From IMG/VR virus record IMGVR_UViG_3300010373_000003, positions 28,896 to 92,895 of that record: a stretch of DNA of 64,000 nucleotides; one strand, written 5' to 3'. The DNA comes from a virus. Shown here piece by piece: positions 6,550 through 52,023 of the stretch. The position numbers were made by a program, and so were the translations under genes. The notes beneath the pieces were generated by a model. That model made no database searches. It was not told where the DNA came from and worked only from the letters and a program-made list of their open reading frames with translations. Numbering within the stretch: position 1 is the stretch's first letter; every line of letters begins with the position of its first letter.

Positions 6550-7339
6550 GTTAGACAATGACTTTAATATAGATCATGGTGATTGGATACCTCGTGTTGG
6601 TGCGTGGATTATAGATGCTATGGGTCAGCTAAATGTTCTTCGTAAGAAACGTAGTAAAATAAAGCTAGATGTTCATAACTGTATAGCTTATTCTAATTGT
6701 CCTATTAATAGTCCTAATCTTATAGTTACTGATTCTAATGGTTGCCCAATTGTCAAACATAAATCTAATGCTAGTGGTTGTTGTTCTTCCTCTACGGGGG
6801 AGGTAACAAAGCTAGGTGATGTAACTCCCTCAACGGTAGATGCTATCTATAATCCTAATGCTGCTTATGTCCCAGATCATACTGTAGCTGAAACTGTCAA
6901 TGGTAGTAATAAACCTCCTAGATATAATATTGTTAACTATGATAACTCTGGAGGACAACCTAGAAATTATGTTCTATTAGATGATAACAAACTTGAATTA
7001 AACTTTAATACAAGTTGTGTTTATGTTGAAACTGATGTAGTTGAAACTGTATGGAGTAAAACCTATGAATGCGATATTCCTGTTGTTCCTAATGTTGGTA
7101 TTCTTATAGAAGCTATTGGTTTTTATTGTATGTATAAAATGTTAACTCGTGGATATAAACATCCTGTATTTAATCTTAATGCTAGTCAATATGGAACTAA
7201 TCCTTATTATGAGTGGAAGACTCTAAAACCTGAAGCTAAGAGAGCTGTTACTATTGATGCTCAGGGTAATATACTGGTTACTGATGGAGGTCTATTTAAA
7301 AGTTCATTCTTTATCACTACATTCCCCAATAGTAAATAG
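6506..7339 (+). CDS. tail tubular/ring protein
   Basis: Size, ...IPVVPN..LIEAIGFYCMYKML segment, and position directly before the stabilisation protein. Confidence 0.6.
   Translation: MLNNTSISVEHIIAKLDNDFNIDHGDWIPRVGAWIIDAMGQLNVLRKKRSKIKLDVHNCIAYSNCPINSPNLIVTDSNGCPIVKHKSNASGCCSSSTGEVTKLGDVTPSTVDAIYNPNAAYVPDHTVAETVNGSNKPPRYNIVNYDNSGGQPRNYVLLDDNKLELNFNTSCVYVETDVVETVWSKTYECDIPVVPNVGILIEAIGFYCMYKMLTRGYKHPVFNLNASQYGTNPYYEWKTLKPEAKRAVTIDAQGNILVTDGGLFKSSFFITTFPNSK
6788..6803 (+). repeat. dispersed motif copy 1 (TCCTCTACGGGGGAGG)
   Basis: Exact core; encodes SSTGE in the tail tubular gene. Confidence 0.95.
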
Positions 7340-7462
7340 CCATTAATATCTCATATAATAGCAATTTAAAGCTGTATACTGGACGATATTAATTTAACTG
7401 TATAATAACGTATATCGACTTTAGATAGTCGCTTATATGAACTTAAAATAAGATGTAAGCAA

Positions 7463-10400
7463 ATGAGCGTTAATACAAAACTTAATCTCAATAAACATCC
7501 AAAAGATAATGATAATTTATCTCTTGTTAATGCTCAGGCTGTAAAGATTAGCCACGATGGGAGTTGTATTACTAGTGAAGATTCTATTAAAGAGAATTCT
7601 TTTATTCATAATTATCTTAGTGCTTTTTATGGTACTAACCCTGTTATTGGTTATAAGATAGTAGGTATTATACCTTGTAATAACGAATTAGTTATTGTAG
7701 TTAAACCTTCTAATACTGTTGATGATGCTGATATATTTAGATATCAAGAACCTATCAATGACAATATTGAAAAGATGTATTGTGCTTATGGAGGATTAGG
7801 TAGTCCTAATAGATTTAAATATCAAGGAGGTCTTATTAAAGGAGCTTTTACTTATAACGTAGAGAATAGTTTAGTTATAGCTATTAGTGAGTATGGTAAT
7901 TCTAATATTAGAATACCTTTACGTACTATTAATCTTGGTAACTCTGACGACCCTACTGTTTATAATGATAAGGATTTATCTAATTCTAAATTATACATAT
8001 CTCCTGAAGTTAGACTACCTAGTGTTAATAATTTAGATTATACCGCAGGTAGTGCTTATAAAGGATGGTACTATATGTTTATTCGTTATAAGATTAATAG
8101 TGTTGATTATACTCAATGGTATTCTATTGGTCCTCCTATTTATATTGATACTTTAGAACAATATCAGATTATAAGGTATCCTTTTGGTAGAGATACTAAG
8201 TTTGCAGCTAGTGCATTAAATGATATAGTTAGTCCTGCTTGGCCAGATGATGGTTATGGAGCAGGTGCTTCTGATTATTTTAGTAATAGTTCTGATATAG
8301 CTAAAGAGACATTTAAAGTAGATTTATATTTTAATAAGAATATTGATTATACTAAATATCAAATAGGAGTAATTTGTGCTTCTAAGTCTTATACTAAAGC
8401 TTTTAGAACTGCTGATATTTACTTAGATAAAAACTATAATGAAGGTTTTAATGTTCGTATACAAAAGTATGTTCTTGATAATAAGTCTTTAATTGAGTAT
8501 AATGTTAGTAGTTTTATTACTGACAATGGTAATTACTTTAATAGTAAGAATGTAATTAATTATAAGAATAGATTATATATTAGTAACTATCTAGAAGATA
8601 ATGCTAATAATGATGATATACCTCAAAGTATTATTGATTCTATTAATGTTAATTTATATACTTCTTATGTAAGAGATTATGGTTTAGTATATGATACAGC
8701 TCTAATAGTAAATTGGGTTACTGGAGCTAATCAGTATGATACTTATAAGTTTACTGAAATACCTCTAGCTAGATTTCTAAACATATCAGAAGAAACTATT
8801 GTTACTATTAGTGCTTCTGGACATACTACTAAAATAAGTAAAGCTGGTCAATTTTATATTACTTCTGGTAATAGTGTTCCCGGATATGCTTATATTCAAT
8901 TAAGAGAACCGGGTCCACTTGGTAGTGTTTCTGTTACTAATTATGGAGTTCAACCTTATAGTGATTATATTTATTTAGCTATTGCTGATGTTAATAATAA
9001 TCCTCAAAGTAATTTTACATTTGATCCTGTTAGGTCTGCTATTAATGGCGGAATGATGTATACTAATACTAATATTGATTTTGATAGTCGTAAGAAACAA
9101 AGTTGTTTAATACCGGGTGAAGTTTATAATTTTAATATACATTTTACTAATAAGTATAGTGGTGCTACTAACGGTTATAGAATACCAAATAATACTAAAT
9201 GGATTGTAAATGGAGAACCTAATAGAGAAATAATACCTATTTCATTTAATCTTAGAGTTAATAGTGAAACTGTTACATATTATGCTGCTATGGATGTTGA
9301 TTCTAATGTAGCAAGAGAAGACTTTACTGTTAATGAAAGATATTCTATTAATGTAAATGGTATAAGGTTTTTTAAACAATATAATACATTTGGTACTAGT
9401 CCTACTTTAAGTAGTGAGGTTACTAGTCCTTCTGATTTACAAAGTTGTGTTGCTGCTTTTAAAGAGTTTTTCTCTTCTTATAATAGTGATAAGTTTTCTA
9501 CTACTAAATGGTATCAAGTATCATATGGACCGGGAGGAGATAAGTTTCATTTATTTATTAATAATAATGGAGATAGACTATTTAAGATTCCTACTATTGA
9601 ATCGTTTACTGGAGCATGGGATGGTTTCCCTGATGAAGTAGCACCTTTCAAACAATACAATCTTCATACTCTAATGAGAGCTTCTTTTGATAATATAGAA
9701 ATACCTGAAGGTTATGACGGATTCTATATATCTTATGAGAAGTTTGAGTCACAAGCTAGAGCTACTGGACTACTTACTCGTAATGATTTCCGTACTCAGG
9801 ATTGGATTGTTAAAGGAGGTAATACTGTACAACTAGGTACTAGAAACTCTGCTAAGTCTGATAAGATGTTCTTTTATAGCAGTACTTATGATATTTCTGA
9901 TACTATTAAATTAGATTATAGTATAATGAGAATTGAAGCTATTAATCCTTTTAAGAAAGAAGATATACCTGAATGGGATTATTTTCAAAGGAATAATACT
10001 TTTAACTTTCTTCATGATATGAATAAGCCTCAGGTTGCTTCTTATTTTGAGGATGTTCAAAGAACTTATGCTATGCCTGAATATAAGATAGCTGTAGCTG
10101 ATAGTGTTGCTGATGATAGAATGGGTGTAGGTACGGCTTTACAAATAAAGGATTCTTATAATCTATTTGCTAGTTATGTTACTAGTGCTGGTATACATGA
10201 TAGATTAAAAGTATATAGAGTTACTCTATTGAATACTACTCGTGACATTTATATGTCTGATAGTAAAACTCTTATTAGACTAGGTGATGTTGTTTATAGG
10301 TCTGAAGGTGCTCCTACTAATTATAAGTATTCACAATATATTAATTCTGGATATAATGGACATTATACTTATGATGGTATTCCTATTTATGAGAATGCAG

Positions 10401-11923
10401 GAGTTGTATTTAACACTGCTAATAATAGAGTTTTTAGAATTAATAATCATGATCATTATTATAAGTTTGAGGTTCCAAATGATAAACCTCATACTTATCA
10501 GAATGATGTTCCTTTTCTAGCTTATTTACAATTACCTATATGTACTGATGTATTCTTTGAAAGTAAGTCTTATAAGAATAGTCCTGTAGGATTTATGTCT
10601 TTAGTTAAAGGTTCAGATGAGAACTCTAATAAGTTTGCTAAAGGTACTATGGTTACTCCTGTTAATAGTATTGATTTATTTGAAAATAGACAAGGTTCTG
10701 CTGATCAGTTTAATCCTAAGACTTATGTTAACTTTAGAGAAGATTTAGTTTCTGTTGAACAATTTGATAAGACTATTCGTAGATCTAATGTTATACAGAA
10801 TGAAAGTAGAGTTAATGGTTGGAGAACTTTCCCTATTGAAGGTTATAAAAATATAACTGAGAATAAAGGAAAGATTACTAATATAATTGGAATAGGTACT
10901 GTTCTACTTGCACATACTGAACATAGTATGTTTATGTTTGATACTGATAATACTCTTAAGACTGAAGGTAAAGATATTCAATTATTACAACCTGATGCTT
11001 TTGAAGTATCGTACAATGAAGTGTTTACTTCTGATAAAGGTTTTGGTGGTTTACAAGATGATAAATCATATATTGTTAATGACTTTGGTTATATATTTTA
11101 TAGTGATGATACTAATCGTATTTATCGGTTTGACGATAAGCAGTTAGATAACATGGACGAAGATATAATACAATGGCTTAAAAAATATAAACCTTTTAAT
11201 GTTAGGATGGCTAACGATAAAGAAAATAATCGTATACTTATGAAATTCGATTATCTTGTTACTGGACTAACTAGAAGTACTGTTATTAGTTATAATTATA
11301 ATGAGAAGAATTTTGTATCTCAACATCCTTATTACTTTGACGAAGCTTTTAATACTAAAGTTGGTTTATACTTACAATGCACTAATGATCATAATGGATG
11401 CTCTTTACATAATTTTGATTATAAAGGAGATGTTTATGGTAGATATGATAATATCAAAGGTACATTAGGTCAATCAATTGTTGCTCATTCTAAACTTAGT
11501 TTTATTATTAATGATTCTTATAGTATTGTTAAGTTCTTAGAGTATATTACTTATAAACTTACTAAGTATGCCGAGTATTCCGGTACTGATTTTACTAACT
11601 TGCCCGTAGAGGAATACAAGACTCCTTATGCTGGATATACACTTGCTGTATATAATAATAATGTTAATACTGGTGTATTAAATATAACTACTGACATTGA
11701 AGCAAACAAAAACATGTTTGATGTTATTGACAAACCTTATTGGGATTTAGGAGTTTGGAACTTTAGTTATCTTCGTAATAGAATAAGTGAACTAAATAAT
11801 GGAGTTAGTGATGATAATATAACTAGATTATTTGGTAACTATTTCATTGTTGAATTTGTATTTGATAACGAGGACGGTCGTAAGATTGATTTTGAAGAAT
11901 TAAATTATAATGTTTCTGAGTAA
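7463..11923 (+). CDS. tail stabilisation / muzzle (nozzle) protein
   Basis: 1486 aa, beta-rich; N-terminal LNLNKHPKD..SLVNA, YKNRLYISNY, IPGEVYNFNIHF, KGKITNI motifs typical of crAss stabilisation proteins; synteny. Confidence 0.7.
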   Translation: MSVNTKLNLNKHPKDNDNLSLVNAQAVKISHDGSCITSEDSIKENSFIHNYLSAFYGTNPVIGYKIVGIIPCNNELVIVVKPSNTVDDADIFRYQEPINDNIEKMYCAYGGLGSPNRFKYQGGLIKGAFTYNVENSLVIAISEYGNSNIRIPLRTINLGNSDDPTVYNDKDLSNSKLYISPEVRLPSVNNLDYTAGSAYKGWYYMFIRYKINSVDYTQWYSIGPPIYIDTLEQYQIIRYPFGRDTKFAASALNDIVSPAWPDDGYGAGASDYFSNSSDIAKETFKVDLYFNKNIDYTKYQIGVICASKSYTKAFRTADIYLDKNYNEGFNVRIQKYVLDNKSLIEYNVSSFITDNGNYFNSKNVINYKNRLYISNYLEDNANNDDIPQSIIDSINVNLYTSYVRDYGLVYDTALIVNWVTGANQYDTYKFTEIPLARFLNISEETIVTISASGHTTKISKAGQFYITSGNSVPGYAYIQLREPGPLGSVSVTNYGVQPYSDYIYLAIADVNNNPQSNFTFDPVRSAINGGMMYTNTNIDFDSRKKQSCLIPGEVYNFNIHFTNKYSGATNGYRIPNNTKWIVNGEPNREIIPISFNLRVNSETVTYYAAMDVDSNVAREDFTVNERYSINVNGIRFFKQYNTFGTSPTLSSEVTSPSDLQSCVAAFKEFFSSYNSDKFSTTKWYQVSYGPGGDKFHLFINNNGDRLFKIPTIESFTGAWDGFPDEVAPFKQYNLHTLMRASFDNIEIPEGYDGFYISYEKFESQARATGLLTRNDFRTQDWIVKGGNTVQLGTRNSAKSDKMFFYSSTYDISDTIKLDYSIMRIEAINPFKKEDIPEWDYFQRNNTFNFLHDMNKPQVASYFEDVQRTYAMPEYKIAVADSVADDRMGVGTALQIKDSYNLFASYVTSAGIHDRLKVYRVTLLNTTRDIYMSDSKTLIRLGDVVYRSEGAPTNYKYSQYINSGYNGHYTYDGIPIYENAGVVFNTANNRVFRINNHDHYYKFEVPNDKPHTYQNDVPFLAYLQLPICTDVFFESKSYKNSPVGFMSLVKGSDENSNKFAKGTMVTPVNSIDLFENRQGSADQFNPKTYVNFREDLVSVEQFDKTIRRSNVIQNESRVNGWRTFPIEGYKNITENKGKITNIIGIGTVLLAHTEHSMFMFDTDNTLKTEGKDIQLLQPDAFEVSYNEVFTSDKGFGGLQDDKSYIVNDFGYIFYSDDTNRIYRFDDKQLDNMDEDIIQWLKKYKPFNVRMANDKENNRILMKFDYLVTGLTRSTVISYNYNEKNFVSQHPYYFDEAFNTKVGLYLQCTNDHNGCSLHNFDYKGDVYGRYDNIKGTLGQSIVAHSKLSFIINDSYSIVKFLEYITYKLTKYAEYSGTDFTNLPVEEYKTPYAGYTLAVYNNNVNTGVLNITTDIEANKNMFDVIDKPYWDLGVWNFSYLRNRISELNNGVSDDNITRLFGNYFIVEFVFDNEDGRKIDFEELNYNVSE
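11599..11613 (-). repeat. dispersed motif copy 2 (TCCTCTACGGGCAAG)
   Basis: Exact core; antisense, encodes LPVEE. Confidence 0.95.
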
Positions 11924-11932
11924 GATATAGAT

Positions 11933-16663: not shown

Positions 16664-19600
16664 ATGGATATTAATGACTTTTTAAATAACGGAGTTACGG
16701 TTAAGAACCCTAATTATAAGAAACCCACTAAGAGAGATCCTAGTGGGTCTCCTCGTTTTATACAATCTGGTGATTACAATGCAGCTGTTGATCGTGATAG
16801 TCGTATTGGTGGATTTCTTGCTGAAAATAGTTATGATCTAACAGGTCTTAACAATGACGAGAATAAGTATGCTGATTATGATGTCCGTATTAACCCAGTT
16901 AATACTAAAGATGAACTTGATCAACAACGTGCTAAGAACCAATCTGCTTGGGAACAAACAGGTAGACTTGTTACGCAAGCTGTAGGTAATGAAATAGTTC
17001 TAGGTACTGCTTTAGGATTATCCAATCTTGTAGATATGGGTGTTAATATTGGTAAAGAGGCTGGAAAAGATGATTATACTAATCCTTTTAGTACTTTCTT
17101 AGAAGGTAAACAAGATGAGATTAGAAAAGCTTTTGAGATATACCAAGAGAATCCTAATGAGACTTTTCAAGTTGGAGACTTTGGATGGTGGGCAGGTAAT
17201 GCTGTAAGTGTTGCTTCTACATTATCTATGCTTATACCTTCAATGGCAGTTACTAAAGGTTTAGGTGCAGCTGGTAAATTTGCTAAACTTGAAAGACTTA
17301 GTACTGGTATTGCTAAAGCAGCTAGTGGTGTAGGTCTAACAAAGAATACTGCTACATTAGCTAGAGCTATTAACTCTGGTGCTGAAATAGGTACCGCAGC
17401 GTTACTTAGTAGAACAATGGAAGGATATCTTGAAGCTAGAGGTGTTTATAAGGAAACTTATGATAAATCTTTAGGTAAACTTGAATCTATGACTGTTGAT
17501 GAGAAAGCTAAGCTTTTTAAGAATAATCCTCAGTTTGTTGGAATGTCTAATGAAGAAATGGCTAGTAATATGTCTAGTTTTTCTGCTGATGAAACCTTTA
17601 AGAATGATTATGCAATGTTACTATTTGATATTGCTCAATTTAAAGCTTTAGGTTCTATGTGGAAAGGTGTTGCTAATAAAGCAGTTAACTCTACTCTAAG
17701 AACAGCTAATAGAAATGCTATTGCTGGACTTGCTGATGATGGAGCAGCTGCTATTGGAAACATGGGATTCTTTGCTAAACGTGCTGAGATTATTAAACAT
17801 GCTATAAAGAATCCTATGAGTAGTCTTACAGCTATTCAACTTAGTGAAGGTCTTGAAGAAGGTTATCAAGGAGTTCAAACAGAGAAAGGTAAAGAGATTG
17901 CTGAAAAGATGCTTGATCCTAATTTTAATGCTAGAACTCTTGAAAGTTATCTTAAAGATGGTGCTATATGGGAACAAGCATTTTGGGGAGTAGTTGGAGG
18001 AATGGCTTTCCAATCTATAGGTACTGGTGTTGGTAATTTAGCTACAGCTGTTAAAGGTAAAGTTAATAAACGTACTATGTCTGAAGAAGATTATGCTCTT
18101 TCTCAAATGACTGATGAAAAGATCAGAGAACAAGAGATTGTAGGTCGTCAGGCTCGTATGCAAGACTTTACAGAGAGTATGCAGCTTCTTAATAATGGTA
18201 AGAATCCTTTTGGTTATAAGATTGATCCTGATACTAAACAACCTATTCTAGCAGACGGTAGTAAAGTCAATGAAGATGTTAGTCAAGAAGAAGCTGAATT
18301 GCTTAAGACTCAACTTACTAATGATTTTGTTACTAATATGGTATTAGATGCTACTGATAAAGGTAATTACGATCTATTCAAAGAATATGTTACTGATCAG
18401 AACTTTGATAAGTTCTTTCAAGATGCTGGACTAGAGTCTAACTCTGGTGATAAATCTTTTAGTAGAATGTTAGTTGATAAGATGGATCAAACATATGAAG
18501 AATACAATGGTGCTCTTTATGATGTTATGAATTCTATTAGTGTAGAGAATGAAAGTGTGGCTAAGATTGTGGCACGAAGTATTGCTAGAAGAAAACTACA
18601 AGTATCAGACTTATATAATAGTTCTGATGATCTAGCTAATCAAATAGCAACTAACGCAGATACTACTGATTATATAGATTATGAAGAGAATCAAAGAGTT
18701 AAATATGTAAAAGATCGTATAGCTGAAATAGATAAAAAAGAACAAGGTCTTCAAGAAATGTTAACTAATAAACAAATTAGTTCTCAAGCTGTAGATCAAA
18801 TTATTAAAGAAAATAATATTAGACGTAATCAACTTCTAGCATTTGCTTCTACTGGTAATATGTTTGGTAACCCTGATGTTATAAGCAATATCTTAAGTTC
18901 TAATATTAATGATGCTAATACTGGTGAATTCTTAGCAGAGTTTAATAAGTTCTTAGCAACTATTGATCAAGATGTTAAACCCGGTACTCCTAAGAAGTCT
19001 GTTCAAGATATTGTTAAAAAGAAGATTGAAGTAGATGATCATTTAGATTATATTGAGAAAACATTACCTACTACACAATCTAACTATCAAACAGAATATG
19101 ATGATGTTGCTAGAAATGTAGATAGACTTACTGTTGAAAGATATGATAAAGCTGTAGACATTGTAGGAGAATATATAGAATCTCAACCAGATCTAGATAC
19201 AGCTCATAACAATGTTATGACTAATAATGTTCCTGCTAATATAAAGGAACAATTAGATATACTTAAACTTGGACATCATAGTACTTCTAAATATACTAGT
19301 CAGATTAATTCTATATTCAGAGAAGTTAACAATGATAGAACAGCAGCTGCTGCTGAAGCTAGAAATGTTAATGTTGATAATACTGTTACTAATGATACTA
19401 CAGCTGAAAATGATATACTTGATATAGATGGTGTAGTTGCTGAAACTGACAATAGAGAATCTGTCACTGAGTCTTCCTCTACGGGGGAGGTTATACAATC
19501 AGATGTATCAAAACCGGCTGCTGTTGAAGAAGTAGTTAATCCTGAAACATTTATTGCTCCTTTTGACATAGTTGAAGAAGTTGCTTCTTTAGATAAAGCT

Positions 19601-22600
19601 ACTGAAAGTGTTATCAATGATCAAACTAATGATTTTATATTAGACAATGATGCAAGAGCTGTAGGTTTAGCAAGTAGTATTACTTTTAATCTATTTAAAA
19701 CTTCTCGTAATCTATTTGATAATCTAGAAGGTAAAGATGTTAATAGTTCTGAATTTAATAATATTGTTGATATAGTTGCTGATGATTTATTTACACAAGG
19801 TGTATCTAGAGGTTATACTAGACAAGCTGCTGTAGATGGTATTAGAATGGCAATGAATATGATACATCGTAGACTTAGTTCTAAGAATATTAGTGGTGCT
19901 GATATGTTTAAAGTATTAGCTGATCAGCTTGCTAATAAACAAAGAGTTGAAGTTGATAGTGAAGGTAAAGCTTCTACTACTACTCTTATTCCTGATAGTG
20001 AATTTAATCAAGTTATTGATCAGTTCATTGATAATTATATTCAAAATAGAGGAGTATATACTGTTAAAGGATTTAAGACTATTATTAATGTTGAAGATTT
20101 GTTTAGAGAACTATTAAATAATGATGGTATTACTTATGAGCAAGCTAAACATGTATTCTTTAATATAGCTGATTATATCAGAGCAAATAATCCTAAGTAT
20201 ATATTTATTAATAAGACTGATCTTAATAAGAATCTTAAGACTCCTAGTACTTTTTTTAATAATCTTATTAATAATAAATCAACTGTTGAAACAGTAGATA
20301 GTTATATGCATATAGCTGCTCCTTCTAATAAACCTGAAGGTTATGATAAAGCTGTAAATGAAGCTATTAATGGAGAACCAGTTGTTATTAGTTATTTTGA
20401 AGGAGAACGAGGTACTAGTAATAACTCTATTTCTATTAAAAGAAATGGTATTGAGATTGGTTATCTTGGTTCTGTTCAACCTAATCCTATTAATACTGGT
20501 TATAAATTAAAGAGACAGAATCAAGGTTTTGTTTATGATCTTGTTAATAACAATGGTAACATTGAAAGTAATTTAGATAAACTATTTATACCTCTTATTA
20601 ATAGAGAAACTACTAATTATTCTTATTTAATGGATATTGCTTATAAGCAATTTGCTTATGAAAGTGCTATTAAAAATGGATCTTCTAGTCAAGATATTAC
20701 TTCTGATGAAGTGAGAGACATTGTACATAATGCTATGATTAAATCATTAGTTGCTTCAGGAGATATTAAAATACCTGCTGATAAGATTACTGATAAGATG
20801 AAGGCTAAGTATATACTTAATCAAATTAATAACATTATCTTTTATGATAATGCTGCGATTACTACTCCTTTAATATTAGAGAGTTATGCTTATTGGAAGT
20901 CTTCTACTTTTAATAATTATGTTAATACTCATAAGATACAACAAGGTCTTGATACTAACAAAAAGATTAATACTAAGCTTGTAAATGTTGCTACTGGTAA
21001 AGTATTATTAGATAATACTAATCATAATATTTCTGATATAGGTTTTACTTATGAACAAAACCCTATTATGATAGTAGATGCTAATGGTAATATTATCAAT
21101 GAAAAAGCTAATACTAGTTATAGCAATGTAGCTGGATTTGAAGTAGGCACTATGGGTATGTTGATTACTGATAATCCTAGTGCTCCTATTATAGCTTTAT
21201 TTACAGAATCTAATAATGTTTCTAGTAATAAAGAACTTGCTAATAGAGTATATTCTGAACTTACAGATTTACTTACAGGTTTTCAAAATAGAGAAGTTAG
21301 TTTTGATAAACTAGCTACTTCATTAGGAGATATGTTTAGTGGTCCGGGTATTAGAAGTAATAATCTATTTAGTGGTTATAGTGTTATTAAAACTAATGAT
21401 AGAATAGCTCTTAATATACAAGGTCGTAAAGGAGAGTATAATCTTATTGTTCATAAGTTTGAAAAAGGTTCTAATACAGAAGGAACTGGTATTACTCATA
21501 TACCTAATGGTGATAAGAGTAAAGCTAATAGTTCTGTTACTACTAGTAAATCTTTTAATAATGCTATTGCTAAAGAGATTGTTTCTAATCTTACTTTTAA
21601 TAAAACATTCTATGCTATTAACAATAAGAATGTTGATAATGATAAATCTAATCAATATCTGTATAAAGAAGGAGGTAAACTAATAATTGAAATAGGAGGT
21701 AAGAAAGATAGTTATAATAGTTTTGGTCAGTTTGTTTTGACTAATAATGCTTTTAAGACTAATCAAGGTAAAAATAAAGATGGTGGTTTCTTTGACACAA
21801 CTGATGCTGTTAAGTCACTTTACATCAATACTGCAATCATTACCTCGCCCGTAGAGGAAACACCATTGACAGATCGTAATAGAACTGCTTCTGATGTTAT
21901 TAAATCAGCTACTAAGACTGAGAGTGTTAATACTTCTGAAATACTAAGTTTAGCAGGAGTTGAAGAAGATAAGATTGCTGTTCTTACTGGTACTAATCAG
22001 TTTGGTATAGAACTTATTCCTAAGGAATCGTACTTTGATAATCGTGCTACTAAAGCTGAAGCTTATTATAGTAAAGGTAAAATGTACTTTACTAATAAAG
22101 GTGCTAATAATATTAGAAGAAGTCCTAATAACCTTATGAGACTTCTTATTCATGAAAATCTTCATGCTAAGTTTGAAGAACAAGGTTTGTTTCAACAAGC
22201 TGGTATTGTAGATGATCTTATGAATACTTATAATAGTTTTATTGAAGCTGTTAATAATGATACTACAAGTGCTGAAGTTAAAGTTATTAAAAATTGGATT
22301 GAAACTAATAAATTTAATCCTATTGATTATATTAGTACTTTATCTGTCGAACAACAAAGAGCATGGATTAATCGTAGTGATGCTGATAAAGCTGCTCAAT
22401 TTGCTGAAGAATGGTTAGTTGAAAGTCTTACTCAACCTTCTATTATTAGATATCTTAATAATACTATTTATACTGGAGGAGATGTTTCTGTTGAAGGAAT
22501 TGATAATAGTGCTAAGACTATATGGCAACGTATTATAGATGTTCTATTAAAATTATTTGGTAGAAATAGTGGAAATATAAAAAATAATACTATATTAGCA

Positions 22601-26100: not shown

Positions 26101-29100
26101 AAAGTAATACTCATAATCTAATAGATCGTGCTCACTATAATGGTGATAGTGTTGTAAAAGATGGAGTACTTACTGGTAATTTCTTTAACTTTATTAGACT
26201 ATTTGAAACACAAGGTTATAAAGCTAATGAAGAGATTAAGAATGCTTTCTTCCTCTACGGGGGAGATACAGCTAACGGTATTGATCCACTGCTCGTTAAG
26301 AATAAGAAAGGTGATCTAACTCTTAATATTAATAGAAAAGATCTTATTGCTATTAATAATAATCATATAGAGCTTAGTATATCTGATAATAACTTAGAAG
26401 TTATTGATTCTGTTGTTGAGAATTGGCTTAATAATTATTATAATGAAGTACTAGATAAAACTTCTCAGTTTAATACTATTATTGAAGATAGATATTCTAA
26501 TAATGATATTGTTGACTATGCTGTTAACAATGCTATTATGGAAATGAACTTTGATGATGTGTTTGAAGGTGATAGTAAGTTCTATAAAGGACCTCAGGAT
26601 TTCCTTAAGAGAGCAAAAGAAGTTCAAGCTGCTGGTAAAGCTTATACTGGTTTTAATATTAATGAAGCTATTGGTGGTCCAGTTCATCCTATTAAAGATG
26701 CAAGTGGTGGTGAGATTCCTATAATGGTTAATGGAGTTGAAGTTGCTAAGGCTAGAAATGGTTTTAAAGGTGTTACTATTTATAATACCGTTAGACCTTC
26801 TCAAAGTGCTGGTCAAATAAAACAAGAACTTGTAGGTATACTTACTCCTAGTGTTGGTAAGACTGAAGCTAATCGTATTGCTACTGAAATATCTCAAGGT
26901 TATTTTGATTCTACTAAAGTCAATGATGCTCAATCCTATATTACTCTTGATGAGTTTATAGCTAGACGTCATGCAGATGGTACATTGAATGATTATCAAG
27001 ATTTACTTGCTCAATTAACTGATGATAAAATCAGTGTTGGAGATATGAATCTTAAAGGTATTAATGCTCGTATTCAAGTACAGAAGAACTTCTATTTTGA
27101 TAAACAGTTTGATGATAATACTGGAACCTTTTATCCTAGACAGATTAAGAATGCTGAATTTGTTCTTATTCCTAAGTTGATTAAAGGTACTGATCTTGAA
27201 ACTCTTTATAACATAATGAAAGCTAATGGTGTTGACCAAGTTAATACTGTTGAAGCTTCTAAAGCTGCTAAAAAGAATATACTTACTTTTTGGGATAATC
27301 AAGGTGTTGCTAATGCTGAAGCGTTTGATGCTAGTCTTAAAGCTGATAACAATATAGCTATTGAAGACTACTACTATCAGTATCTTTATAAACAACAAGA
27401 TGTTGCTGATCATATGGTTAATGAGAAGAACAAAGCTGGTATTCAAATCATGAAGAAAATCATTGATAATGCTAATGCTGAAGTTCAAGGAGATATTGAT
27501 AATTTCTTTAATAGCTATGTTGCTAATATTAAAGATGACTTTAATATGCTTCTTAATCGTATGGGTTGGAGAGTTGAAAATGGTTCTTTAGTTGATAGTA
27601 GTGGTAAGACTAATGCTGATGGTAAGAATGTACTTCAATTTGAAGATTTTTATAAGAAAGCACGTGTTGAGGCTCAACGTCTTGGTATGGATTCTAACTT
27701 TATAGAATATCTTACTCCTGATCAGTTTGGTTCTCCTGTTATGCCTAACTATATGAACAATGTCTCTTCTAAGTTAGAAAGTATTGCTCAAAGTATATTT
27801 AATAATGGTGTTACTAGACAGACTCTTCCTGGATGGCATGCTGCTCAGGTTACTAGTGTTGGACATGGTGTTCCATCATTAGGAGAAGATGGTGTATGGA
27901 GAACTCTTAAGTATCACCCTCAAGTTACTAGAGAAGATGGTACAGTAGTTCAAGAAGCTTATGCTGAAGTTATGCTTCCTAGATGGAGTACTTTAATTCC
28001 TAAAGATTATGATATTTCTAAGTTAGAATCTGAAGGTATTGATATTCATTTAGGTTATCGTATTCCTACTGAAGGTAAACAATCTATTAGTAATCTAAAA
28101 GTTGTTGCTTTCTTAGATGAGGTTTATGGTTCTACTATTATGGTTCCTGATGAATGGGTAACTCAAACAGGTAGTGACTTTGACGTTGATAGTGTTTATG
28201 GTATTTCTCATGAAATATATAAAGACAGAGAGGGTACTATTAAGAAAGTACAGTTTGATAACTCTACAGAAGTTAAAGATGTTGAACGTAGATATGTTAA
28301 TTATATTAATGGAGCTATAGAACATCGTGTAGATAAAGATATTATACCTGATGAGTTTATAACTGATAAAGTTAATGAAGCTAGAGATCAAATTAAAGAC
28401 TTAGATATTGTTAGAAAAGAATCTAAATATCTTGGTGAATTGATTTCTAATCATGGTAGTATTTATAGACAACTTCCTACTGAGGTTCAAGATCAAGTTA
28501 AATCTATTAATAGAAGATTTAGAACTGGTAATATATATGATAGATACAATGCTTTAGCTGCTACATTTGAAGTACTATCTTCTCAGGAAACTGGAGAACT
28601 TAAAGATGTTTATGAAGAATTTGGTTCTTATAGTGAGGCTATTGCTAATGCTTATGAATATATTAAAAGTATAGATACTGATTCTATTCCTAAGTTTAAT
28701 AAGTCTGAAGTTATTAAAGGTATATTTGAAAATGCTCGTATTGAGTATTTAAATAAAGTTAAGAAAGCTGCTAAAGCTTCTAATCTTGTTACTTATGAAG
28801 AGTTTGCTAATTGGTCTATAGAAGATCAGAATAGTCGTAAGGCTCGTAATAATAGGATATTAGATAGTATGATTAATGTTATGAATAATAGTAATTCTCG
28901 TGAAGAGAACTATTCTCGTAGTAATTTTGATGATCTATCTAATGCTATGAAGAAAATGAATGCTCTTCGTGGTGCTTCCTCTATTGTTCGTAGTGCTTAT
29001 AATCCTTTAGATCAAGTTGATTTTATGGAGAATGCTATGAGTGGTGCTACTCTTAAAGCTTTCTCTGTTACTAGAGATACTTTTAATTCTGTTAATAACT

Positions 29101-32100
29101 ATACAAAATCTAAACTAGGTGAAGGTCATGAAATTAAAGTTGAGTATGATCTTAATCAATATGATATTAAACATTTAAATAGCGCTTATAATGGTGTACA
29201 ACTTGATAAATCTCGTAATGTGGCTATTGTTATGCATAATAGCTTGGCTAATAGTAATAACAACAGGAACGTTGTTGGTAAAATCCTTACAGTTTATAGT
29301 TCTCAAACTACAGCTCATATTCTAGATGCTGTTAAAGAAGGTACTATTTTCAATGAGAATGATTATACCTTTGGAACATTTAAAACTCTTATTGATGTAG
29401 GTATTGATTATGAAACTGCTATTGGTTTCTTAATGCAACCAGGAATTACTAAGATTGTAGATGCTTACTTCCAAAGTAAAAGTATTTATATTAATAGTAC
29501 TTCTAACCCTATTAATGTTGCTATTAAGTCTATAGCTACTGATCTAGGTATTACTATTGGAGGACGTGCTATTGATGACTATACCCCTGTTAAGAGTGTA
29601 GTACAAAGATTGAGTACTTACCCGAGATTGCAAATGGCGTATAGACAGCTGTTTGCAGCTAATCTAGGATATAATAATACTATTGACGTACAATCACAAA
29701 ACCTTAATGGTTTAATGCTTCAGAACCGCTTAAAAGGGGTTGAAATAACTAATACTTTAACATTAACACTAGATCAACAACAGTATCAAAATGCTGCTTT
29801 TGATTTAGCTATGATTGCTAACTTTGATAAGTATCGTAAGACTACTCGTAATATTGAAGCTTTAGCTAGAGTTAGTAATCCTGATAGGTTTGGTGCTAAG
29901 CAAACAATTAGAGGAACTAGAGTTACTTTAAATAATATTGCTAAATATGCTACTGATCCTAATGATATAGTTGGTGAAACTATAATGGTTGGAAATAAGA
30001 ATATTATTCAATCTTTATACCCAGGTTTTAATACTAGAGAAGGTATAGATATTACTAATAGTTCTTATCCATATCTTGCTGCGTTTTTAAAGTTTGCTAC
30101 TCAACCTAGTGTTGAAGCTAATAGTCAGTTGTTTCCTACTGAAAGTAATAGTTATAATGCTATTACAGATACTGTTCAAGCTAGAATGGGTATTAATTTT
30201 ACTGATGAACAGTATAAAGAATATAAACAATATATGATTTCTAATGTTTATGCTGGTGTTCCATTTTTAACATCACCTTTAACATTGAATGAATATGGTT
30301 TAATTACTTTAGATAATGTAGCTATTGAAGCTGAAGTTAATTTAAATAATCAATATTGGGATGTTGAACGTTCTAGAATATTTGGTTACGATGTTACCCA
30401 AAGTGGCAATATTACTATTAAAGATATTAATAATCCTAATGAGGAAGAAGTATTTAATTTTAATCAACTTACTCCTGCTCAGAAAGTTATATGGATTCAA
30501 CGTAATTTTAATGAAGGTAGAGGTGTATTTGATTTCTTAGATGTTAATACTTTTAATCAGTATGAGTTTAAGAATAAAGGATTTAGTAGTCAATCTATTA
30601 AATATAGTGATCAAATTGATGATATTGAAGAAGTGTATGTTGCTTTTAGAGATAGCTTCTTTAATAAGAATCCTTTAGTTAGACTTGCTACTATTGACTT
30701 AATTAAGTATTCTTTTGTTGCTGAAGGGTTTAAATTTAAACGTGGAAGTATTAGTAAAATTATTACTAATGATACGTTGTATTCTAATCTAGAAGATAAA
30801 GGTATTAATCTAATTGAAGCTATACAGCAACAATTTATGATTTATAATAATCCTCTTGAAGCTACTACTCAAAAGTTTATTGATAAGTTTATACGTAGTC
30901 ATAGTGAACTTGTTAAAGAAGTTTCTATTCCTAAAGGTAAAACTGATAAACAAGGTAATGAGAATATTGGTCGTAAGTTTAATAGACAAATACAAGGAGA
31001 GAATATAGTTTTTATTCCTTTTGCTGAGTCTACTAAAGAGTTACTAGAACATCTTAACATTATTGAAGATAGTCCTAAAGGTTATGTTAGAATTGGTAGA
31101 TATATCAATGATACTCAACGTAGAACTACTTTATATAAAGTTACTAATACTAGACAAGGTGTTTATTTAACTCCTTTGAATATACTTGAACGTAATGAGA
31201 CTTCTGAGTATTCAGTTAATGCTAAAAATAACTTATATAAAGCTACTGAATATTATGATGCTATAATTAATTTATCTGTAGATAATGGAGTTCCTGTTAA
31301 TGAGTTACTTAAAGATGGTAAAACTGTTGAACAACTTAATATTCTTAAAGATCAGTTTACTATAACTCCTCATAAGTCTAAACATATAATTGAAAGTGTT
31401 GAAAACACTAATGAAGTTATTAGAGTTATGCAGTATGGTACTAATATTGAGCAAGCTGAGACTGCTAAGTTTGTATCTGACATTGTAGATTACATAACTT
31501 CCCCTGTAGAGGAAGCAGGTAACTATGGCGTTATTAAAAATGATAATGGTTTTATTAATTCTCTTATCCCTCATGGTGTTTCTGTTATTCAGAACATACC
31601 TAATGGTGAAGATATTATAACTGTTAAGATTACTAAACATACTAAGAAGAATGGTTTAAGTAAACAATTTGAATATGTACTTAAAGGAGACAAACGTGGA
31701 GATCTTGCTAAGGTTAAACCTGAAGAAAGAAAGGCTTTACAGAACTCTATTGATGCTAAAAGTATTAGACCTACATTATATAAGATTGAAAGGGTTACCA
31801 GTGAACAAGAAAGAGAGAACTACGAAGAACTTAGAAAACAAGTAGAAGATCAAGCTGCTTCTCAAATGAATGCAGTTACTAATCTAATTGAAGACTTTGA
31901 TGTAGATGTTGTTTTCAATTATACTGAAACTGATAAGGTTGCTAAAGATATATTTAATGAACTTAATAAACGTGCTTTATCTAATGATGATAAACGTGCT
32001 GTTAAATTTAAGAAAGCTATGGATATAGCAGGTATAGATAGGACTAGTGCTAATTCTATACATGATAATAAGAGAAATATATATACTTCTGCTGCTAAGT

Positions 32101-36894: not shown

Positions 36895-37296
36895 TTATGA
36901 TTTAGGTGTATTACGTTCAGATCGAGGTTTATTCGGGTAGGCACGCTTATGTGGCTTCGGCTTACTAGAACTAATAATACTCATAGTCTTAGCACTATAA
37001 ACTTCAATACCTTTAGCAATAGTATCTAACATATCTTTAATAGATGTTTGTTTAGAATCAATAATAACAGTTTTAGAAGATATCTCCTTAAAGTTATTCA
37101 TAATAACTTCATCACTTGTAGCAACAGTAGTATTCAACTTTTTAATAGCATCAACAACACTTTCAACACAGTCTAAAATTCTAGACTGCTTCTTCTTTAA
37201 GTGTAAGAATAACATCACGATAACTAGTAACATGATGGTCACAATGAAGACTCCTAGAGCCATCATTATATTTATATTGGTTTCAATCATAAGCAT
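36895..37296 (-). CDS. membrane-anchored coiled-coil protein
   Basis: One N-terminal TM helix, coiled coil, basic C-terminus. Confidence 0.55.
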   Translation of the reverse strand: MLMIETNINIMMALGVFIVTIMLLVIVMLFLHLKKKQSRILDCVESVVDAIKKLNTTVATSDEVIMNNFKEISSKTVIIDSKQTSIKDMLDTIAKGIEVYSAKTMSIISSSKPKPHKRAYPNKPRSERNTPKS

Positions 37297-37317: not shown

Positions 37318-37412
37318 CTTCCTCTACGGGGGAGGTACAGCTCTCTATTACTAGAGGTTCAATCAAGACGGTTAAGACGATTAAGATCATATAACCTTGC
37401 CCGTAGAGGAAG
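37318..37412. repeat. inverted pair of dispersed motif copies 7 and 8, intergenic
   Basis: CTTCCTCTACGGGGGAGGT (37318-36) and ACCTTGCCCGTAGAGGAAG (37394-412): 19-bp inverted repeats with 2 mismatches. Confidence 0.95.
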
Positions 37413-46492: not shown

Positions 46493-46504
46493 AATAGTTT
46501 TAAT

Positions 46505-46777: not shown

Positions 46778-46780
46778 ATC

Positions 46781-47533
46781 TTAATAACATTTAAGCATAT
46801 GATTAGCAAAACCAACAGCTTTATAAAATAGCTGCATTTTAGTACCATTATTCTGAATAGGAAAAGTAGATTTAAAATCAATATCTTCACTATCATGTTT
46901 AGCAACTTGATCAGTACTTTCTCTTCTGATCTCAATGTCTCCCCCGTAGAGGATATGCTTTACTATAGCGTTGTTCTCATTCCTGTATCTTACATCAGGG
47001 ATAATACAAAGACCAGTAGTTTCAGCAATATCAGCAGCTCTATACATAGTAGAATTAATCCAAAGATTATTACCAAGTAGTTTTCTACCAATTTCAGTAC
47101 CAAAATATTGCATAAGAGTACGAAGCCTAATAACAGGAGTTTTACCCTTTCTTTCAATATCTTCAATAATATAATTTAAATTATATTTAACAGTAAGAGA
47201 TTCTATAGTAATACCTACATATTCACTAAAACTAGCTTCAGCTTCTGTAAGAAACCTACGCTGACTAAATGAATACCACTCTACATCTTTCTTATCTCTA
47301 TCGTCAAAATACTTACGAGGAATATTATAAATAATAGACAAACAATCCTTCATAGGATCAGCGAAATGAGTAATACGATGTTCATTAGTTAAATCCCATT
47401 TAACACGATGAGTTAACCAATCTGAATAATTAGCTTTAGCTACACCTTTATAAAAGATATAATTAAGCATAGAAGCAAAAGTATCTTTACCTGAATTAAG
47501 TTGTCCAGATATACCAACAATATAACTTTTCAT
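46781..47533 (-). CDS. deoxynucleoside monophosphate kinase
   Basis: GISGQLNSGKDT P-loop, FADPMK, R.LMQYFGTEIGR, IPDVRY.NE, H.SE. Confidence 0.88.
   Translation of the reverse strand: MKSYIVGISGQLNSGKDTFASMLNYIFYKGVAKANYSDWLTHRVKWDLTNEHRITHFADPMKDCLSIIYNIPRKYFDDRDKKDVEWYSFSQRRFLTEAEASFSEYVGITIESLTVKYNLNYIIEDIERKGKTPVIRLRTLMQYFGTEIGRKLLGNNLWINSTMYRAADIAETTGLCIIPDVRYRNENNAIVKHILYGGDIEIRRESTDQVAKHDSEDIDFKSTFPIQNNGTKMQLFYKAVGFANHMLKCY
46939..46953 (-). repeat. dispersed motif copy 9 (TCCTCTACGGGGGAG)
   Basis: Exact core; encodes ILYGG in the dNMP kinase. Confidence 0.95.
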
Positions 47534-48017: not shown

Positions 48018-48027
48018 CAATATATAG

Positions 48028-48375: not shown

Positions 48376-48377
48376 AT

Positions 48378-49598
48378 TTAATCCTCCAGTATAATAACAG
48401 TTTTAATGTGAAAAGGAACTTGTTCAACACCGCTTCTTTCTCCATACTCAACAAGAGCTTTTCTGTACATGTATTTATCTTTATTAGCAATAACACTACG
48501 TTGATAATCAAATGATCCATTAACACTAGCTTTAAAAGTAGCATTATTAATATCATTCTTAAGTACTAATAAAGGAAGATCTCTCTTTTCATCTTCAGGT
48601 ACAATATCAACTATAGTAAACTTACCATCAGTCATAGCTTTAAACTTCCACATAGCAGAATTACGTTTACCAAACTGATATTCATCATTAGGATTACGAC
48701 CAACAATGCCTTCAAATCCTAATTTAATAAACTTATTTCTAAGACTTCTAGCAGAACTATCTGAAGTACAAAGATAATCAGGAACTCTAACTAATCTTTC
48801 AGTATTATTAGAGTGGCTACCTTCTTTATTTAAATTAATAGCACAATATCCTATATGTTTATCAAGAGTAGATAGTCTAGCATTTTGAGTCATATTAGCA
48901 ACAGCTATATCATAACACCAGAACTGTAAAAGTTTATTCTTAGGATCTTTAGGGTCTTTAACAAGATGATTTATCTCATTAACAGCATGACCATAAAGAT
49001 ATACTTCTCCATCAAGAATATAATCTTCATTTATCATTAAGTTCAATAAATCAATAGGTAATACTTTAAGTAAATATTCTTCAAGATCACCTAGACTATC
49101 CCAATAGTTACCTTCACGAGATTGAAAGGTTAAAGCAATAGGTTTAAATAAATCACCTTCGTTATTCTTAGCACCAATACCACATCTAAGACCATTAATC
49201 TTAGGTTGAACTATATAAGAACTTTGTTTATTGAATATCTTATTATTCTTATTATCATACAGTTTAGCAAGCATATGAAGCATAGCACCAGTATGACTTT
49301 GTCTATCATAAGGCAGATAAGTATCAAGATAAGCTATTACTTGTGTTTCCTCTACGGGCAAGGTATTGCTATCAGCAACGTCAGCAAGTAACATATATCC
49401 ACTCTTACGTTTAGTATTAACCCGAGACTTTAATTCATCTTCAAGAGTTCTCTTAGTATGGATAATTTCAGAACTAATAGTTTTCCCTAATATCCCATAA
49501 TATAATTCTAAACAATAAGCAGAATTATTAACTCTAGCATACCATACAGTAGGTTGACCTGCATTATTTCTCCTATAAAGAGCTTTATTATAATCCAT
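48378..49598 (-). CDS. lig: ATP-dependent DNA ligase
   Basis: QPKINGLRC (motif I), LDGEVY, FWCYD, GFEGIVGR, MWKFK. Confidence 0.9.
   Translation of the reverse strand: MDYNKALYRRNNAGQPTVWYARVNNSAYCLELYYGILGKTISSEIIHTKRTLEDELKSRVNTKRKSGYMLLADVADSNTLPVEETQVIAYLDTYLPYDRQSHTGAMLHMLAKLYDNKNNKIFNKQSSYIVQPKINGLRCGIGAKNNEGDLFKPIALTFQSREGNYWDSLGDLEEYLLKVLPIDLLNLMINEDYILDGEVYLYGHAVNEINHLVKDPKDPKNKLLQFWCYDIAVANMTQNARLSTLDKHIGYCAINLNKEGSHSNNTERLVRVPDYLCTSDSSARSLRNKFIKLGFEGIVGRNPNDEYQFGKRNSAMWKFKAMTDGKFTIVDIVPEDEKRDLPLLVLKNDINNATFKASVNGSFDYQRSVIANKDKYMYRKALVEYGERSGVEQVPFHIKTVIILED
49348..49363 (+). repeat. dispersed motif copy 10 (TCCTCTACGGGCAAGG)
   Basis: Exact core; encodes LPVEE in the ligase. Confidence 0.95.
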
Positions 49599-50473: not shown

Positions 50474-50897
50474 TATAAACCATCACCTTATCAGGCTTAC
50501 CAAGAAGGCAATGATTATACTTTAACCAAGCAACAGGATCATTACAAGGTCCCCATTTAATAACCTTTTCTAATTTACCCATCTCATAATTATCAACTAG
50601 ACCAAATAGACCTTCTTCATAATTAAAATTAGAATAAATCAATCCACGATTATTAGTTTCTACAAGACCATATCTCTTAATAGAATCTATATCAGAAGCT
50701 TTATTAAAATCTAAATCTCCATAGAAATATATAGCAGACTTATCACTATACTTATCTAGTCTATCTTCTTCTTTTTGAGTAATAGCTCGCATATACACAT
50801 TAAGACCTCCTTTATTAGGACTATCAGAATGGACTAATATTACCTTCTTTCTTATCCCTAATAAGTTTACTGTATCGCCTAACAAAACTTGTTTCAT
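50436..50897 (-). CDS. hypothetical protein
   Basis: 153-aa ORF overlapping the primase end. Confidence 0.55.
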   Translation of the reverse strand: MKQVLLGDTVNLLGIRKKVILVHSDSPNKGGLNVYMRAITQKEEDRLDKYSDKSAIYFYGDLDFNKASDIDSIKRYGLVETNNRGLIYSNFNYEEGLFGLVDNYEMGKLEKVIKWGPCNDPVAWLKYNHCLLGKPDKVMVYNDNYHDFFIGRR

Positions 50898-52023
50898 ATT
50901 CTTTTATATTAGTAGTTATATTAATAATAGGATCAACGATCCCTTTAATTCCTTTTTTTTCTCTCCACTCGGAGAAGTCTTTTGCACCATCTTTAACAGG
51001 TATAAGAACAGGCATTATAATAAAGTTGTTACGAAGCCATATAGTCTGCATCTTTCCAACTCTATCATTATCCATAAGAGATAGCATAATACCTCCTTTT
51101 TTTAGTTTACCATGTAACCAATCATATTCACTCTGCCTAAGTTTATAAGTTTCATGAGGTAGATTGATAACGCCGATGTTGACTTTAATGGCTCCCCCGT
51201 AGAGGAAGTTAATCTCTTTAATAGCTGCTTTTATAGCAACTCTATCTTTAGTAGACTTAGTAATAACAATTATATCATACTCATCTTGATTCAATGTATA
51301 AATACCTTCAAGATGATTACAATTAGTTATAAATCTAGTAAAACCTTTTTCACGTTTAGGAAAATAAAGTTTAATATTATAAAGTCCATTACGATCTTGA
51401 CCAAGTAAATAAGCATAACAAGGGTCAGTAGGATTATAATAATATTTAGGATCAGGATTAACATTTCTATTAATATAGTACTGATCTATAGGATATATAA
51501 ATTCAATATTTAACAAATGAGGACTAACACCTATACGTTTCCAATCATTAATATCATTATTATTCCATTCTCGAATAACCAATTCAATATTAGGTTTAGT
51601 ATTACGTAAATTAACAATAGCAGTGTTTATATCTGTAATAAGATTAATATCTTTTTCTTGTCCATAAAATATATCTTTAAACATAAACGTGATATGTCTA
51701 AGAACTTTAAGGAAATCTTCTTTATTGGATATATTAATAGGTCTATTATAAGTAGTAGTCATAACTAATGCTACAAGATCAAAACAGTCACCCCAGAAAT
51801 ATCCAGCAAAGTCTTTAAATTTAAGTCTATCCTGAGTATATTTAAACCCACAAGTAGGATTAATATCATATCTAATAGGAGAATGTATAAAGTCTCCAGT
51901 ATCAATACAATGTTGAACTATAGCATCAGAAAGATTTAAATAAGTACTAAAAATACTAACTTGACTTACTTTACTAAGAATATATTTTTTATTAAGAGTT
52001 CCAGTATTAATATTTCTAGCCAT
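50824..52023 (-). CDS. DnaG-like (TOPRIM) primase
   Basis: SPIR.D.NPTC.F, FKDFAG..GDCF, IVITKS.KD, LMDND..G, KDFSE. Confidence 0.8.
   Translation of the reverse strand: MARNINTGTLNKKYILSKVSQVSIFSTYLNLSDAIVQHCIDTGDFIHSPIRYDINPTCGFKYTQDRLKFKDFAGYFWGDCFDLVALVMTTTYNRPINISNKEDFLKVLRHITFMFKDIFYGQEKDINLITDINTAIVNLRNTKPNIELVIREWNNNDINDWKRIGVSPHLLNIEFIYPIDQYYINRNVNPDPKYYYNPTDPCYAYLLGQDRNGLYNIKLYFPKREKGFTRFITNCNHLEGIYTLNQDEYDIIVITKSTKDRVAIKAAIKEINFLYGGAIKVNIGVINLPHETYKLRQSEYDWLHGKLKKGGIMLSLMDNDRVGKMQTIWLRNNFIIMPVLIPVKDGAKDFSEWREKKGIKGIVDPIINITTNIKEYETSFVRRYSKLIRDKKEGNISPF
51132..51146 (-). repeat. dispersed motif copy 11 (TCCTCTACGGGGGAG)
   Basis: Exact core; encodes FLYGG in the primase. Confidence 0.95.

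Follow-up and report, generated by a model that had tools for sequence, protein, structure and literature searches.

Background

Chi sites are short G-rich polar words of 5-8 nt that belong to the host chromosome, occur about every 5 kb, are overlaid on coding sequence, are read in one direction, and are skewed with the direction of replication. Single-strand initiation (ssi) signals and minimal origins, such as ssiA and ssiB of RSF1010 with RepB' and those of the G4 type, are strand-specific hairpins of ~40 nt that occur once or twice per replicon, and an inverted pair of them on opposite strands marks an origin near direct repeats and an initiator gene. The nick motifs of T5/BF23, the phiKMV-like phages and Pseudomonas phage tf place a long asymmetric consensus at a few to dozens of fixed positions in the genome of a lytic phage, the nicks of T5 and phiKMV falling on one strand. 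The stoperators of cluster A mycobacteriophages are 13-bp asymmetric repressor sites, about 30 per genome, which are mostly intergenic, lie in one orientation to transcription, and have dialects that co-evolve with a phage protein. Convergent anchors of the CTCF type are asymmetric motifs with non-random orientation. In this article, we compare with these systems a polar word of ~15 bp that recurs in a stretch of 64,000 nucleotides of virus DNA, referred to below as the window, i.e., bases 28896-92895 of the 92,895-bp IMG/VR record IMGVR_UViG_3300010373_000003 (G+C 30%).

Similarity of the primase identifies the genome as that of a crAss-like phage (Crassvirales, family Intestiviridae), the closest named records by this protein being cr3_1 (54% identity), followed by cr110_1 and Carjivirus communis (49%). 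A 123-bp "terminal repeat" of the record was rejected as a physical end of the genome because its length is that of an assembly overlap, and repeats of 99-123 bp were treated likewise. No Rfam family was found within the window. A preliminary description of the window had reported that copies of the word alternate in orientation and had interpreted neighbouring copies as convergent, asymmetric pairs. We find instead that the alternation is a by-product of separate arrays on the two strands, and that neighbouring copies separated by a few kb do not form functional pairs.

Results

Copies of the word in the window

A search of the window for the core CCTCTACGGG with at most one mismatch finds 12 copies of the 15-base word TCCTCTACGGGGGAG, while 100 dinucleotide shuffles contain 0.34 on average and 2 at most. 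The cores start at 6789+, 11603-, 19476+, 21848-, 26252+, 31503- (spelled CCTCTACAGG), 37321+, 37400-, 46943-, 49349+, 51196- and 56026+. This search reproduces the orientation order given in the preliminary description (+ - + - + - + - - + - +) and its pair distances (4.8 kb, 2.4 kb, 5.3 kb, 79 bp and 1.85 kb). Its coordinates are likewise correct, except that the site placed at 51146 lies at 51192-51206, ~60 bases away. Each of its five pairs does join a site with the tail GGGGGAG to one with the tail GGGCAAG, GGGCGAG or AGGGGAAG. The copies are listed below, with the open reading frames (ORFs) that contain them and the peptides that they encode there.

6788..6802, plus strand: motif copy TCCTCTACGGGGGAG, sense in ORF 6506-7339, reads SSTGE; orthologous site in 10 relatives
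11599..11613, minus strand: motif copy with tail GGGCAAG, antisense in ORF 7463-11923, reads LPVEE; orthologous site in 6 relatives
19475..19489, plus strand: motif copy with canonical tail, sense in ORF 16664-23002, reads SSTGE
21844..21858, minus strand: motif copy with tail GGGCGAG, antisense in ORF 16664-23002, reads SPVEE
26251..26265, plus strand: motif copy with canonical tail, sense in the 4532-aa ORF 23133-36731, reads FLYGG
31499..31513, minus strand: motif copy with variant core CCTCTACAGG and tail GGAAG, antisense in ORF 23133-36731, reads SPVEE; position weight matrix score 23.7 bits
37320..37334, plus strand: intergenic motif copy, left arm of a tight doublet
37396..37410, minus strand: intergenic motif copy with tail GGGCAAG, right arm of the tight doublet
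46939..46953, minus strand: motif copy with canonical tail, sense in the dNMP kinase gene 46781-47533 (minus strand), reads LYGG
49348..49362, plus strand: motif copy with tail GGGCAAG, antisense in the ATP-dependent DNA ligase gene 48378-49598 (minus strand), reads LPVEE
51192..51206, minus strand: motif copy with canonical tail, sense in the DnaG-type primase gene 50824-52029 (minus strand), reads FLYGG
56025..56039, plus strand: motif copy with canonical tail, antisense in ORF 55133-56575 (minus strand), a homologue of the SNF2-like ATPase gp17 of C. communis, reads SPVEE; present in 12 of the 12 relatives compared

Independent arrays on the two strands

The alternation in the window is non-random by a runs test (11 runs compared to 7.0 expected, exact p=0.013). 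The six copies in bases 1-28895 of the genome follow the order - + + + + -, which does not alternate (3 runs vs 3.7), and the entire genome, with 18 copies, has 14 runs vs 9.9 (p=0.036). For a larger sample, sites scoring at least 20 bits with a weight matrix were collected from 13 genomes, i.e., the window's genome and 12 relatives from IMG/VR with 16-33 copies each. This set contains 315 sites, compared to 0-1 in shuffled genomes at a much lower threshold. The compared genomes are only ~70% identical in nucleotide sequence to the window's genome over the alignable parts.

When neighbouring sites are pooled over the 13 genomes, inversion depends strongly on distance: 48 of 49 neighbours are inverted at less than 600 bp, 43/49 at 0.6-2 kb, 85/130 at 2-5 kb, and 31/74 beyond 5 kb. 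In 289 cases, a site was inverted relative to the nearer of its two neighbours 242 times and relative to the farther one 154 times, the latter being random. If all pairs are counted by distance, the density of pairs in opposite orientation is flat from 0.6 kb outward, and what changes with distance is the density of pairs in the same orientation, which are nearly absent below 3 kb and normally frequent beyond it. Statistical significance was assessed with two null models. Across 11 genomes there are 204 orientation changes, compared to 145±8 when the strand labels are shuffled (none of 3000 shuffles reached 204). In the second model, the minus array is moved randomly round the circle while the plus array stays fixed, so that each strand keeps its own array; this shift null yields 199.5±5.6 changes, from which the observed number does not differ (p=0.25). 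Partners in opposite orientation at up to 1 or 3 kb are, again, as frequent in the data as under the shift null (0.50 of sites vs 0.55 in the window's genome), and partner distances between 0.3 and 3 kb equal chance, contrary to the proposal of convergent pairs a few kb apart. Coupling of plus and minus sites beyond chance is found only at distances under 300 bp (p=0.003 in G003 and p=0.01 in C. communis).

Within each strand the sites are over-dispersed. The smallest gap in the window's genome is 4045 bp on the plus strand (null median 672, p=0.005) and 4253 bp on the minus strand (p=0.046), and the coefficient of variation (CV) of the spacings is 0.43 and 0.47 on the two strands vs 0.87 in the null. 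The gaps in the window itself range from 6.7 to 12.7 kb (plus) and from 4.3 to 10.2 kb (minus), with a CV of 0.26 and 0.30. Similar over-dispersion per strand occurs in G014, G018, G007, G008, C. communis and cr3_1. The + - + - order thus results from two interleaved, independently placed arrays, each with its own exclusion zone. We are highly confident of this architecture of independent per-strand arrays with a same-strand exclusion of ~3-4 kb. The preliminary claim that orientation matters therefore stands insofar as each strand holds its own over-dispersed array, and it falls where it takes the convergent pair as the unit.

Site-specific inversion, as in the shufflon (sfx/Rci) and Hin/Gin systems, is unsupported as a source of the alternating orientations because close relatives are collinear: megablast matches between close genome pairs (93-98% identity) show no local inversions and are collinear throughout. 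No cognate recombinase was found among the annotations of cr3_1 or C. communis or in the scanned part of the proteome of the window's genome. The ends of the matches show no significant preference for the sites (14 of 112 within 120 bp vs ~8% expected). At one large mosaic boundary, the 97-98% identity between G008 and G002 stops 13 bp from a tight doublet (G008 28200-28340), and the next 23 kb, which contain giant virion genes, have diverged beyond the range of megablast.

Tail asymmetry

The canonical and variant tails of the claimed pairs have an explanation in the coding context. The tail GGGGGAG is found at 8 of 8 sense sites in the window's genome and at 1 of 7 antisense sites (p=0.0014); since the genes of a block are co-directional and the strands alternate, every pair of neighbours consists of a sense and an antisense copy and consequently appears asymmetric. 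The asymmetry ascribed to the pairs vanishes across the 13 genomes, where the tail GGAG occurs at 53 of 125 sense and 48 of 101 antisense sites (p=0.50), and the tails of partners are, if anything, less alike than those of non-partners (0.54 vs 0.63). The intergenic doublet 37320/37410 also combines a canonical with a variant copy, which coding cannot explain, but it is a single case.

A family-wide signal private to the phages

The signal is real, family-wide, and undescribed in the searchable literature. Its consensus, (T/C)CCTCTACGGGGGAG, is polar and spans ~15 bp. An exact-match scan of IMG/VR finds many phage contigs of ~90 kb with several copies each; 19 of 25 tested records contain 8-29 exact cores, and the reversed control never exceeds 2 copies in any of them. 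Among named relatives, C. communis has 31 sites, cr3_1 30, and crAss002 13 (mostly CCTTTACGGG). The sites of C. communis contain CCTC(T/C)ACGGG within a longer consensus of ~26 nt, with the core spelled CCTCTACGGG in 16 cases and CCTCCACGGG in 15. Neither spelling alternates on its own; the two combined do.

Alignment of 248 copies from the 13 genomes confines the information to positions -1 to +13, at least 11 of which are invariant, and reveals no conservation outside this range that would indicate a second half-site or a longer element. Sites are maintained at orthologous positions in proteins that are merely 30-55% identical. The site in the primase gene encodes FLYGG or SLYGG in some lineages and, in another frame, PLRG in the clade of G003, G009 and G017 (for example, G003 L154:12924-12933). 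Because this word is kept in different reading frames, it is the nucleotide word that is conserved and not the peptide. The coding context of the 315 sites is consistent with a signal at the DNA level: 125 are sense, 101 antisense (i.e., there is no sense/antisense preference), and 89 intergenic, so that 72% lie in coding sequence, while intergenic DNA is enriched about four-fold. The frame in which an antisense copy would introduce TAG is never used, and sites favour indel-prone loops (2.75 gaps vs 1.1 in controls).

Lineages differ in dialect: the flanks covary in all sites of a lineage, e.g., tc...ggagt, tt...ggaac, at...gggtg and ...cagag. The 12-mer CCTCTACGGGGG occurs 0-2 times per genome in 121 genomes of the family Bacteroidaceae, equal to its reversed control, and a scan of 185,579 species genomes gave single scattered matches alone, among the matches listed. 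A host-encoded signal was rejected, host genomes not being enriched. Given this lack of enrichment and the lineage dialects, the reader of the word is most likely a factor encoded by the phage.

Other candidates were rejected as well. The flanks of the copies are unrelated, which excludes a mobile element or insertion. Features of repetitive extragenic palindromic (REP) sequences and bacterial interspersed mosaic elements (BIME), of REPIN, or of miniature inverted-repeat transposable elements (MITE) were not found, as there is no similarity beyond the core, there are no host copies, and most sites are coding. The intergenic copies have no fixed distance or orientation to the flanking genes, which excludes a promoter. 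We found no description of the word in a phage context in the searchable literature, nor of any such lattice; a study of the phi14:2 RNA polymerase reports no common motif upstream of early transcripts, and a MITE survey does not cover the word. Outside the window, at G000:C1:18304-18564, a solitary intergenic copy is flanked on one side by a terminator hairpin of the ordinary kind and, ~40 nt downstream, by the conserved element CAGTATATATAAT. G016 and G018 have an identical layout, and G014 has a similar one with shorter spacing. The region around this copy may be a control region for late genes.

Tight inverted doublets

Inverted doublets closer than 300 bp exceed chance, in some lineages only. 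Non-coding DNA at the junctions of modules repeatedly contains doublets whose arms are 27-170 bp apart, and tight doublets fold into GC-rich stems of 14-19 bp. The doublet 37320/37410 of the window has 19-nt arms that are 89% complementary and a 57-nt spacer; tandem 9-bp direct repeats (AAGACGGTT/AAGACGATT) and a weaker third unit form an iteron-like arrangement between the two copies (37335-37395). It adjoins a 133-aa ORF (36895-37296, minus strand) for which no family match was found, and a doublet is present at the same module junction in G007, G008, G002, G016, G018 and C. communis.

Both repL genes of C. communis have a tight doublet 270-550 bp upstream. In the region upstream of repL gp88 (BK010471.1 95700-96095), the doublet is inverted and perfect over 17 nt and is accompanied by a third copy, which is degenerate, by an AT-rich stretch, and by two direct repeats of 34 nt. 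The second doublet, with 30-nt arms, lies ~550 bp upstream of the other repL (gp43). An origin has been predicted directly upstream of the gp88 repL, and SSB genes are the most expressed genes of this phage (PMC10983915).

The doublets of the G003 clade are different in position: their arms are 41-48 bp apart, and they are located 17-21 nt past stop codons and are followed by T runs. They look like intrinsic terminators made of two copies of the word. Doublets of this terminator-like kind bracket a cassette of two small ORFs in G003 (L154:3626-3680 and 4274-4330) and G009 (L163:18469-18523). A Pfam search with small ORFs bracketed by sites was uninformative.

Beyond Intestiviridae

Extension to other families of Crassvirales was only partly successful and is tentative. 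The Steigviridae phage PhiCrAssBcn13 (OQ221548.1) lacks the Intestiviridae word and has 29 copies of the 9-mer CTTCTGGAG, ~80 times the compositional expectation. These copies alternate (24 runs vs 15.1, p=0.0002), with minimum same-strand gaps of 1536 and 3075 bp (p=0.007 and 0.005), and the 9-mer is not enriched in 31 genomes of the family Bacteroidaceae. Four other genera of Steigviridae have only 1-7 copies of it. DAC15 (MT074136.1) carries 22 copies of a related spelling, CTTCTGGTG (~50 times expectation), with weak per-strand regularity (p ~0.1). One tight doublet of DAC15 (503-/575+) is located inside the annotated 1842-bp terminal repeat. The Crevaviridae phage cr127_1 (MT774393.1) has ten copies of a ~45-nt element that contains GGCCACAAGGGCGAGAGGTGTTCCGA; alternation is absent, and tight inverted doublets (173-556 bp) occur three times. 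Within this element, GGGCGAG..GGT is similar to the tail of the word of Intestiviridae.

Discussion

Possible function

The explanation that we consider best overall, with a probability of about 0.5, is a genome-wide polar signal private to the phages and arranged in per-strand arrays, with a start of strand synthesis as its favoured function. The reader is probably a phage factor, belonging to the machinery of replication or recombination, that reads one strand or tracks along DNA in one direction and would gain little from a second nearby site on the same strand. The word could mark strand-specific starts of DNA synthesis, by priming or by loading of helicase/primase on exposed single strands. 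Solitary sites would then cap the length of unprimed strand, and tight doublets would start both strands at origin-like zones. A start signal is favoured because doublets lie beside initiator genes and direct repeats, and because these phages encode a DnaG-type primase, helicases, abundant SSB, and RecT. That priming is the mechanism is possible but doubtful. The more specific proposal that Crassvirales genomes are a lattice of strand-specific synthesis starts, with doublets as origins, read by a phage primase/helicase with an unusually long recognition word, is unlikely.

Several observations weigh against a synthesis-start signal and the array architecture behind it. No reader protein was identified, and known DnaG-type primases read trinucleotides, not 11-15 bases. 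One site per 8-10 kb per strand would leave unusually long unprimed stretches. No RepL is detectable by tblastn in the window's genome. If the null model includes a hard-core minimum gap, the extra evenness of the arrays is modest (combined z=-2.4 over 16 arrays), and the window's genome shows no regularity beyond this null (p=0.31 and 0.37); an exclusion zone is consequently shown more firmly than a requirement for coverage. Finally, the compared genomes have many ancestral sites in common and are not independent samples.

Among the alternatives, a Chi-like signal or polar roadblock survives best, and we still consider it quite unlikely. Here a phage helicase-nuclease or recombination machine entering from a DNA end would read the word in one orientation and be switched by it from degradation to repair, so that phage DNA is spared and host DNA, without the word, is not. 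Such a signal would account equally well for polar arrays on each strand in which a further copy close by on the same strand adds little, the 3' half of the word is G-rich, the word is absent from host genomes, and relatives encode RecT, a PD-(D/E)XK nuclease, an SF1 helicase annotated as exodeoxyribonuclease, and a Gam-like inhibitor. However, known Chi sites are shorter and belong to the host genome, we know of no RecBCD- or AddAB-like complex in crAss-like phages, and the doublets beside repL and direct repeats would be left unexplained.

There is a slim chance that the word marks site-specific single-strand nicks, with a set of its own on each strand, as in T5, phiKMV-like phages and Pseudomonas phage tf. 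In favour of such nicks, the motif is long, asymmetric and conserved and recurs in many copies on a defined strand, the spacing of at least 3-4 kb per strand is compatible with them, and the phage encodes a DNA ligase. Yet the genomes tolerate doublets of copies on opposite strands 27-130 bp apart and are even enriched in them, which disfavours nicking because nicks in both arms would be near double-strand breaks. Moreover, no nickase was identified, and read ends of C. communis are in excess at the terminal-repeat region only (PMC10983915).

It is improbable that the sites bind a phage protein such as an IHF/HU-like one irrespective of orientation, with close direct repeats purged as deletion-prone and inverted neighbours left behind. 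The small residual regularity of the window's genome under the hard-core null, the RecT encoded by the phage, and dialects that would suit a co-evolving protein are in line with this possibility. Against it, the exclusion edge at ~3 kb is sharp and eleven contiguous invariant bases are unusual for a monomer that binds duplex DNA. Repeats of 15 bp that are separated by 1-3 kb should give rise to deletions very seldom, so purging would take implausibly strong selection.

An equally poor candidate is base-pairing between inverted copies, at the level of RNA or of single-stranded DNA, which would produce long hairpins, terminators or processing sites. The GC-rich stems of the tight doublets and the position of the G003-clade doublets between stop codons and T runs are what it predicts, and for tight doublets it may hold. 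It does not hold for the lattice: for most sites the distance to a partner is no shorter than expected by chance, complementarity is no higher between partners than between non-partners, variant pairs yield A·C mismatches in mRNA, and sites lie inside translated giant genes.

Hardly credible, finally, is the convergent pair of a canonical and a variant copy a few kb apart as a unit (loop anchors or translocase stop/load sites): although nearest neighbours are mostly inverted, every pair in the window joins the two tail types, and convergent order is commoner among tight coding pairs, the alternation follows from the shift null, intermediate partner distances and farther neighbours are random, the tail asymmetry is a sense/antisense effect confined to one genome, partners show no complementarity beyond the motif, and the coarse Hi-C map of C. 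communis shows local contacts and the terminal-repeat region only (PMC10983915).

Implications

The signal is found in the prototype crAssphage and throughout a family that is among the most abundant human gut viruses, and a private strand-specific word fixed through essential genes points to an unstudied step in the DNA metabolism of crAss-phages. If the lattice of start sites were true, replication of the most abundant human gut phages would depend on a private address code within genes. The main value of the analysis is corrective, in that alternating orientation should not be taken as evidence of pairing or looping. In practice, the word could be used as a handle for its reader protein and the dialect as a signature for lineage classification. 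Caution is advisable in recoding or engineering these phages, as synonymous changes could destroy sites.

Comparison with known systems

CTCF-type anchors have in common with the present word an asymmetric motif whose orientation is non-random, but here plus and minus sites are uncoupled beyond chance, and no loops appear in the published Hi-C map of C. communis (PMC10983915). The four kinds that come closer are Chi, priming signals, nick motifs and stoperators. Like Chi, the word is G-rich, polar, overlaid on genes and spaced by about 5 kb; it differs in having at least 11 invariant bases, in being private to the phages and balanced between the strands, and in occupying fixed orthologous positions, and the over-representation in host genomes that is a hallmark of Chi was not found in the 121 Bacteroidaceae-family genomes. 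With ssi signals and minimal origins it shares strand specificity, and the inverted opposite-strand doublets upstream of the repL genes of C. communis, one of them near direct repeats at a predicted origin, may be a further parallel; in contrast to ssi signals, the 15-bp word has no strong hairpin and is present in 18-33 copies. The hallmark of nick motifs, a conserved asymmetric consensus at fixed genome positions, was found for the word too, whereas its sites are on both strands and close opposite-strand doublets are common. Stoperators are similar in word length, copy number and co-evolving dialects, and differ in location and orientation, the present sites being largely coding and about equally sense and antisense. 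Thus, Chi, ssi/priming signals, nick motifs and stoperators are the closest kinds of signal, and the word departs from each of them in at least one of the defining features tested.

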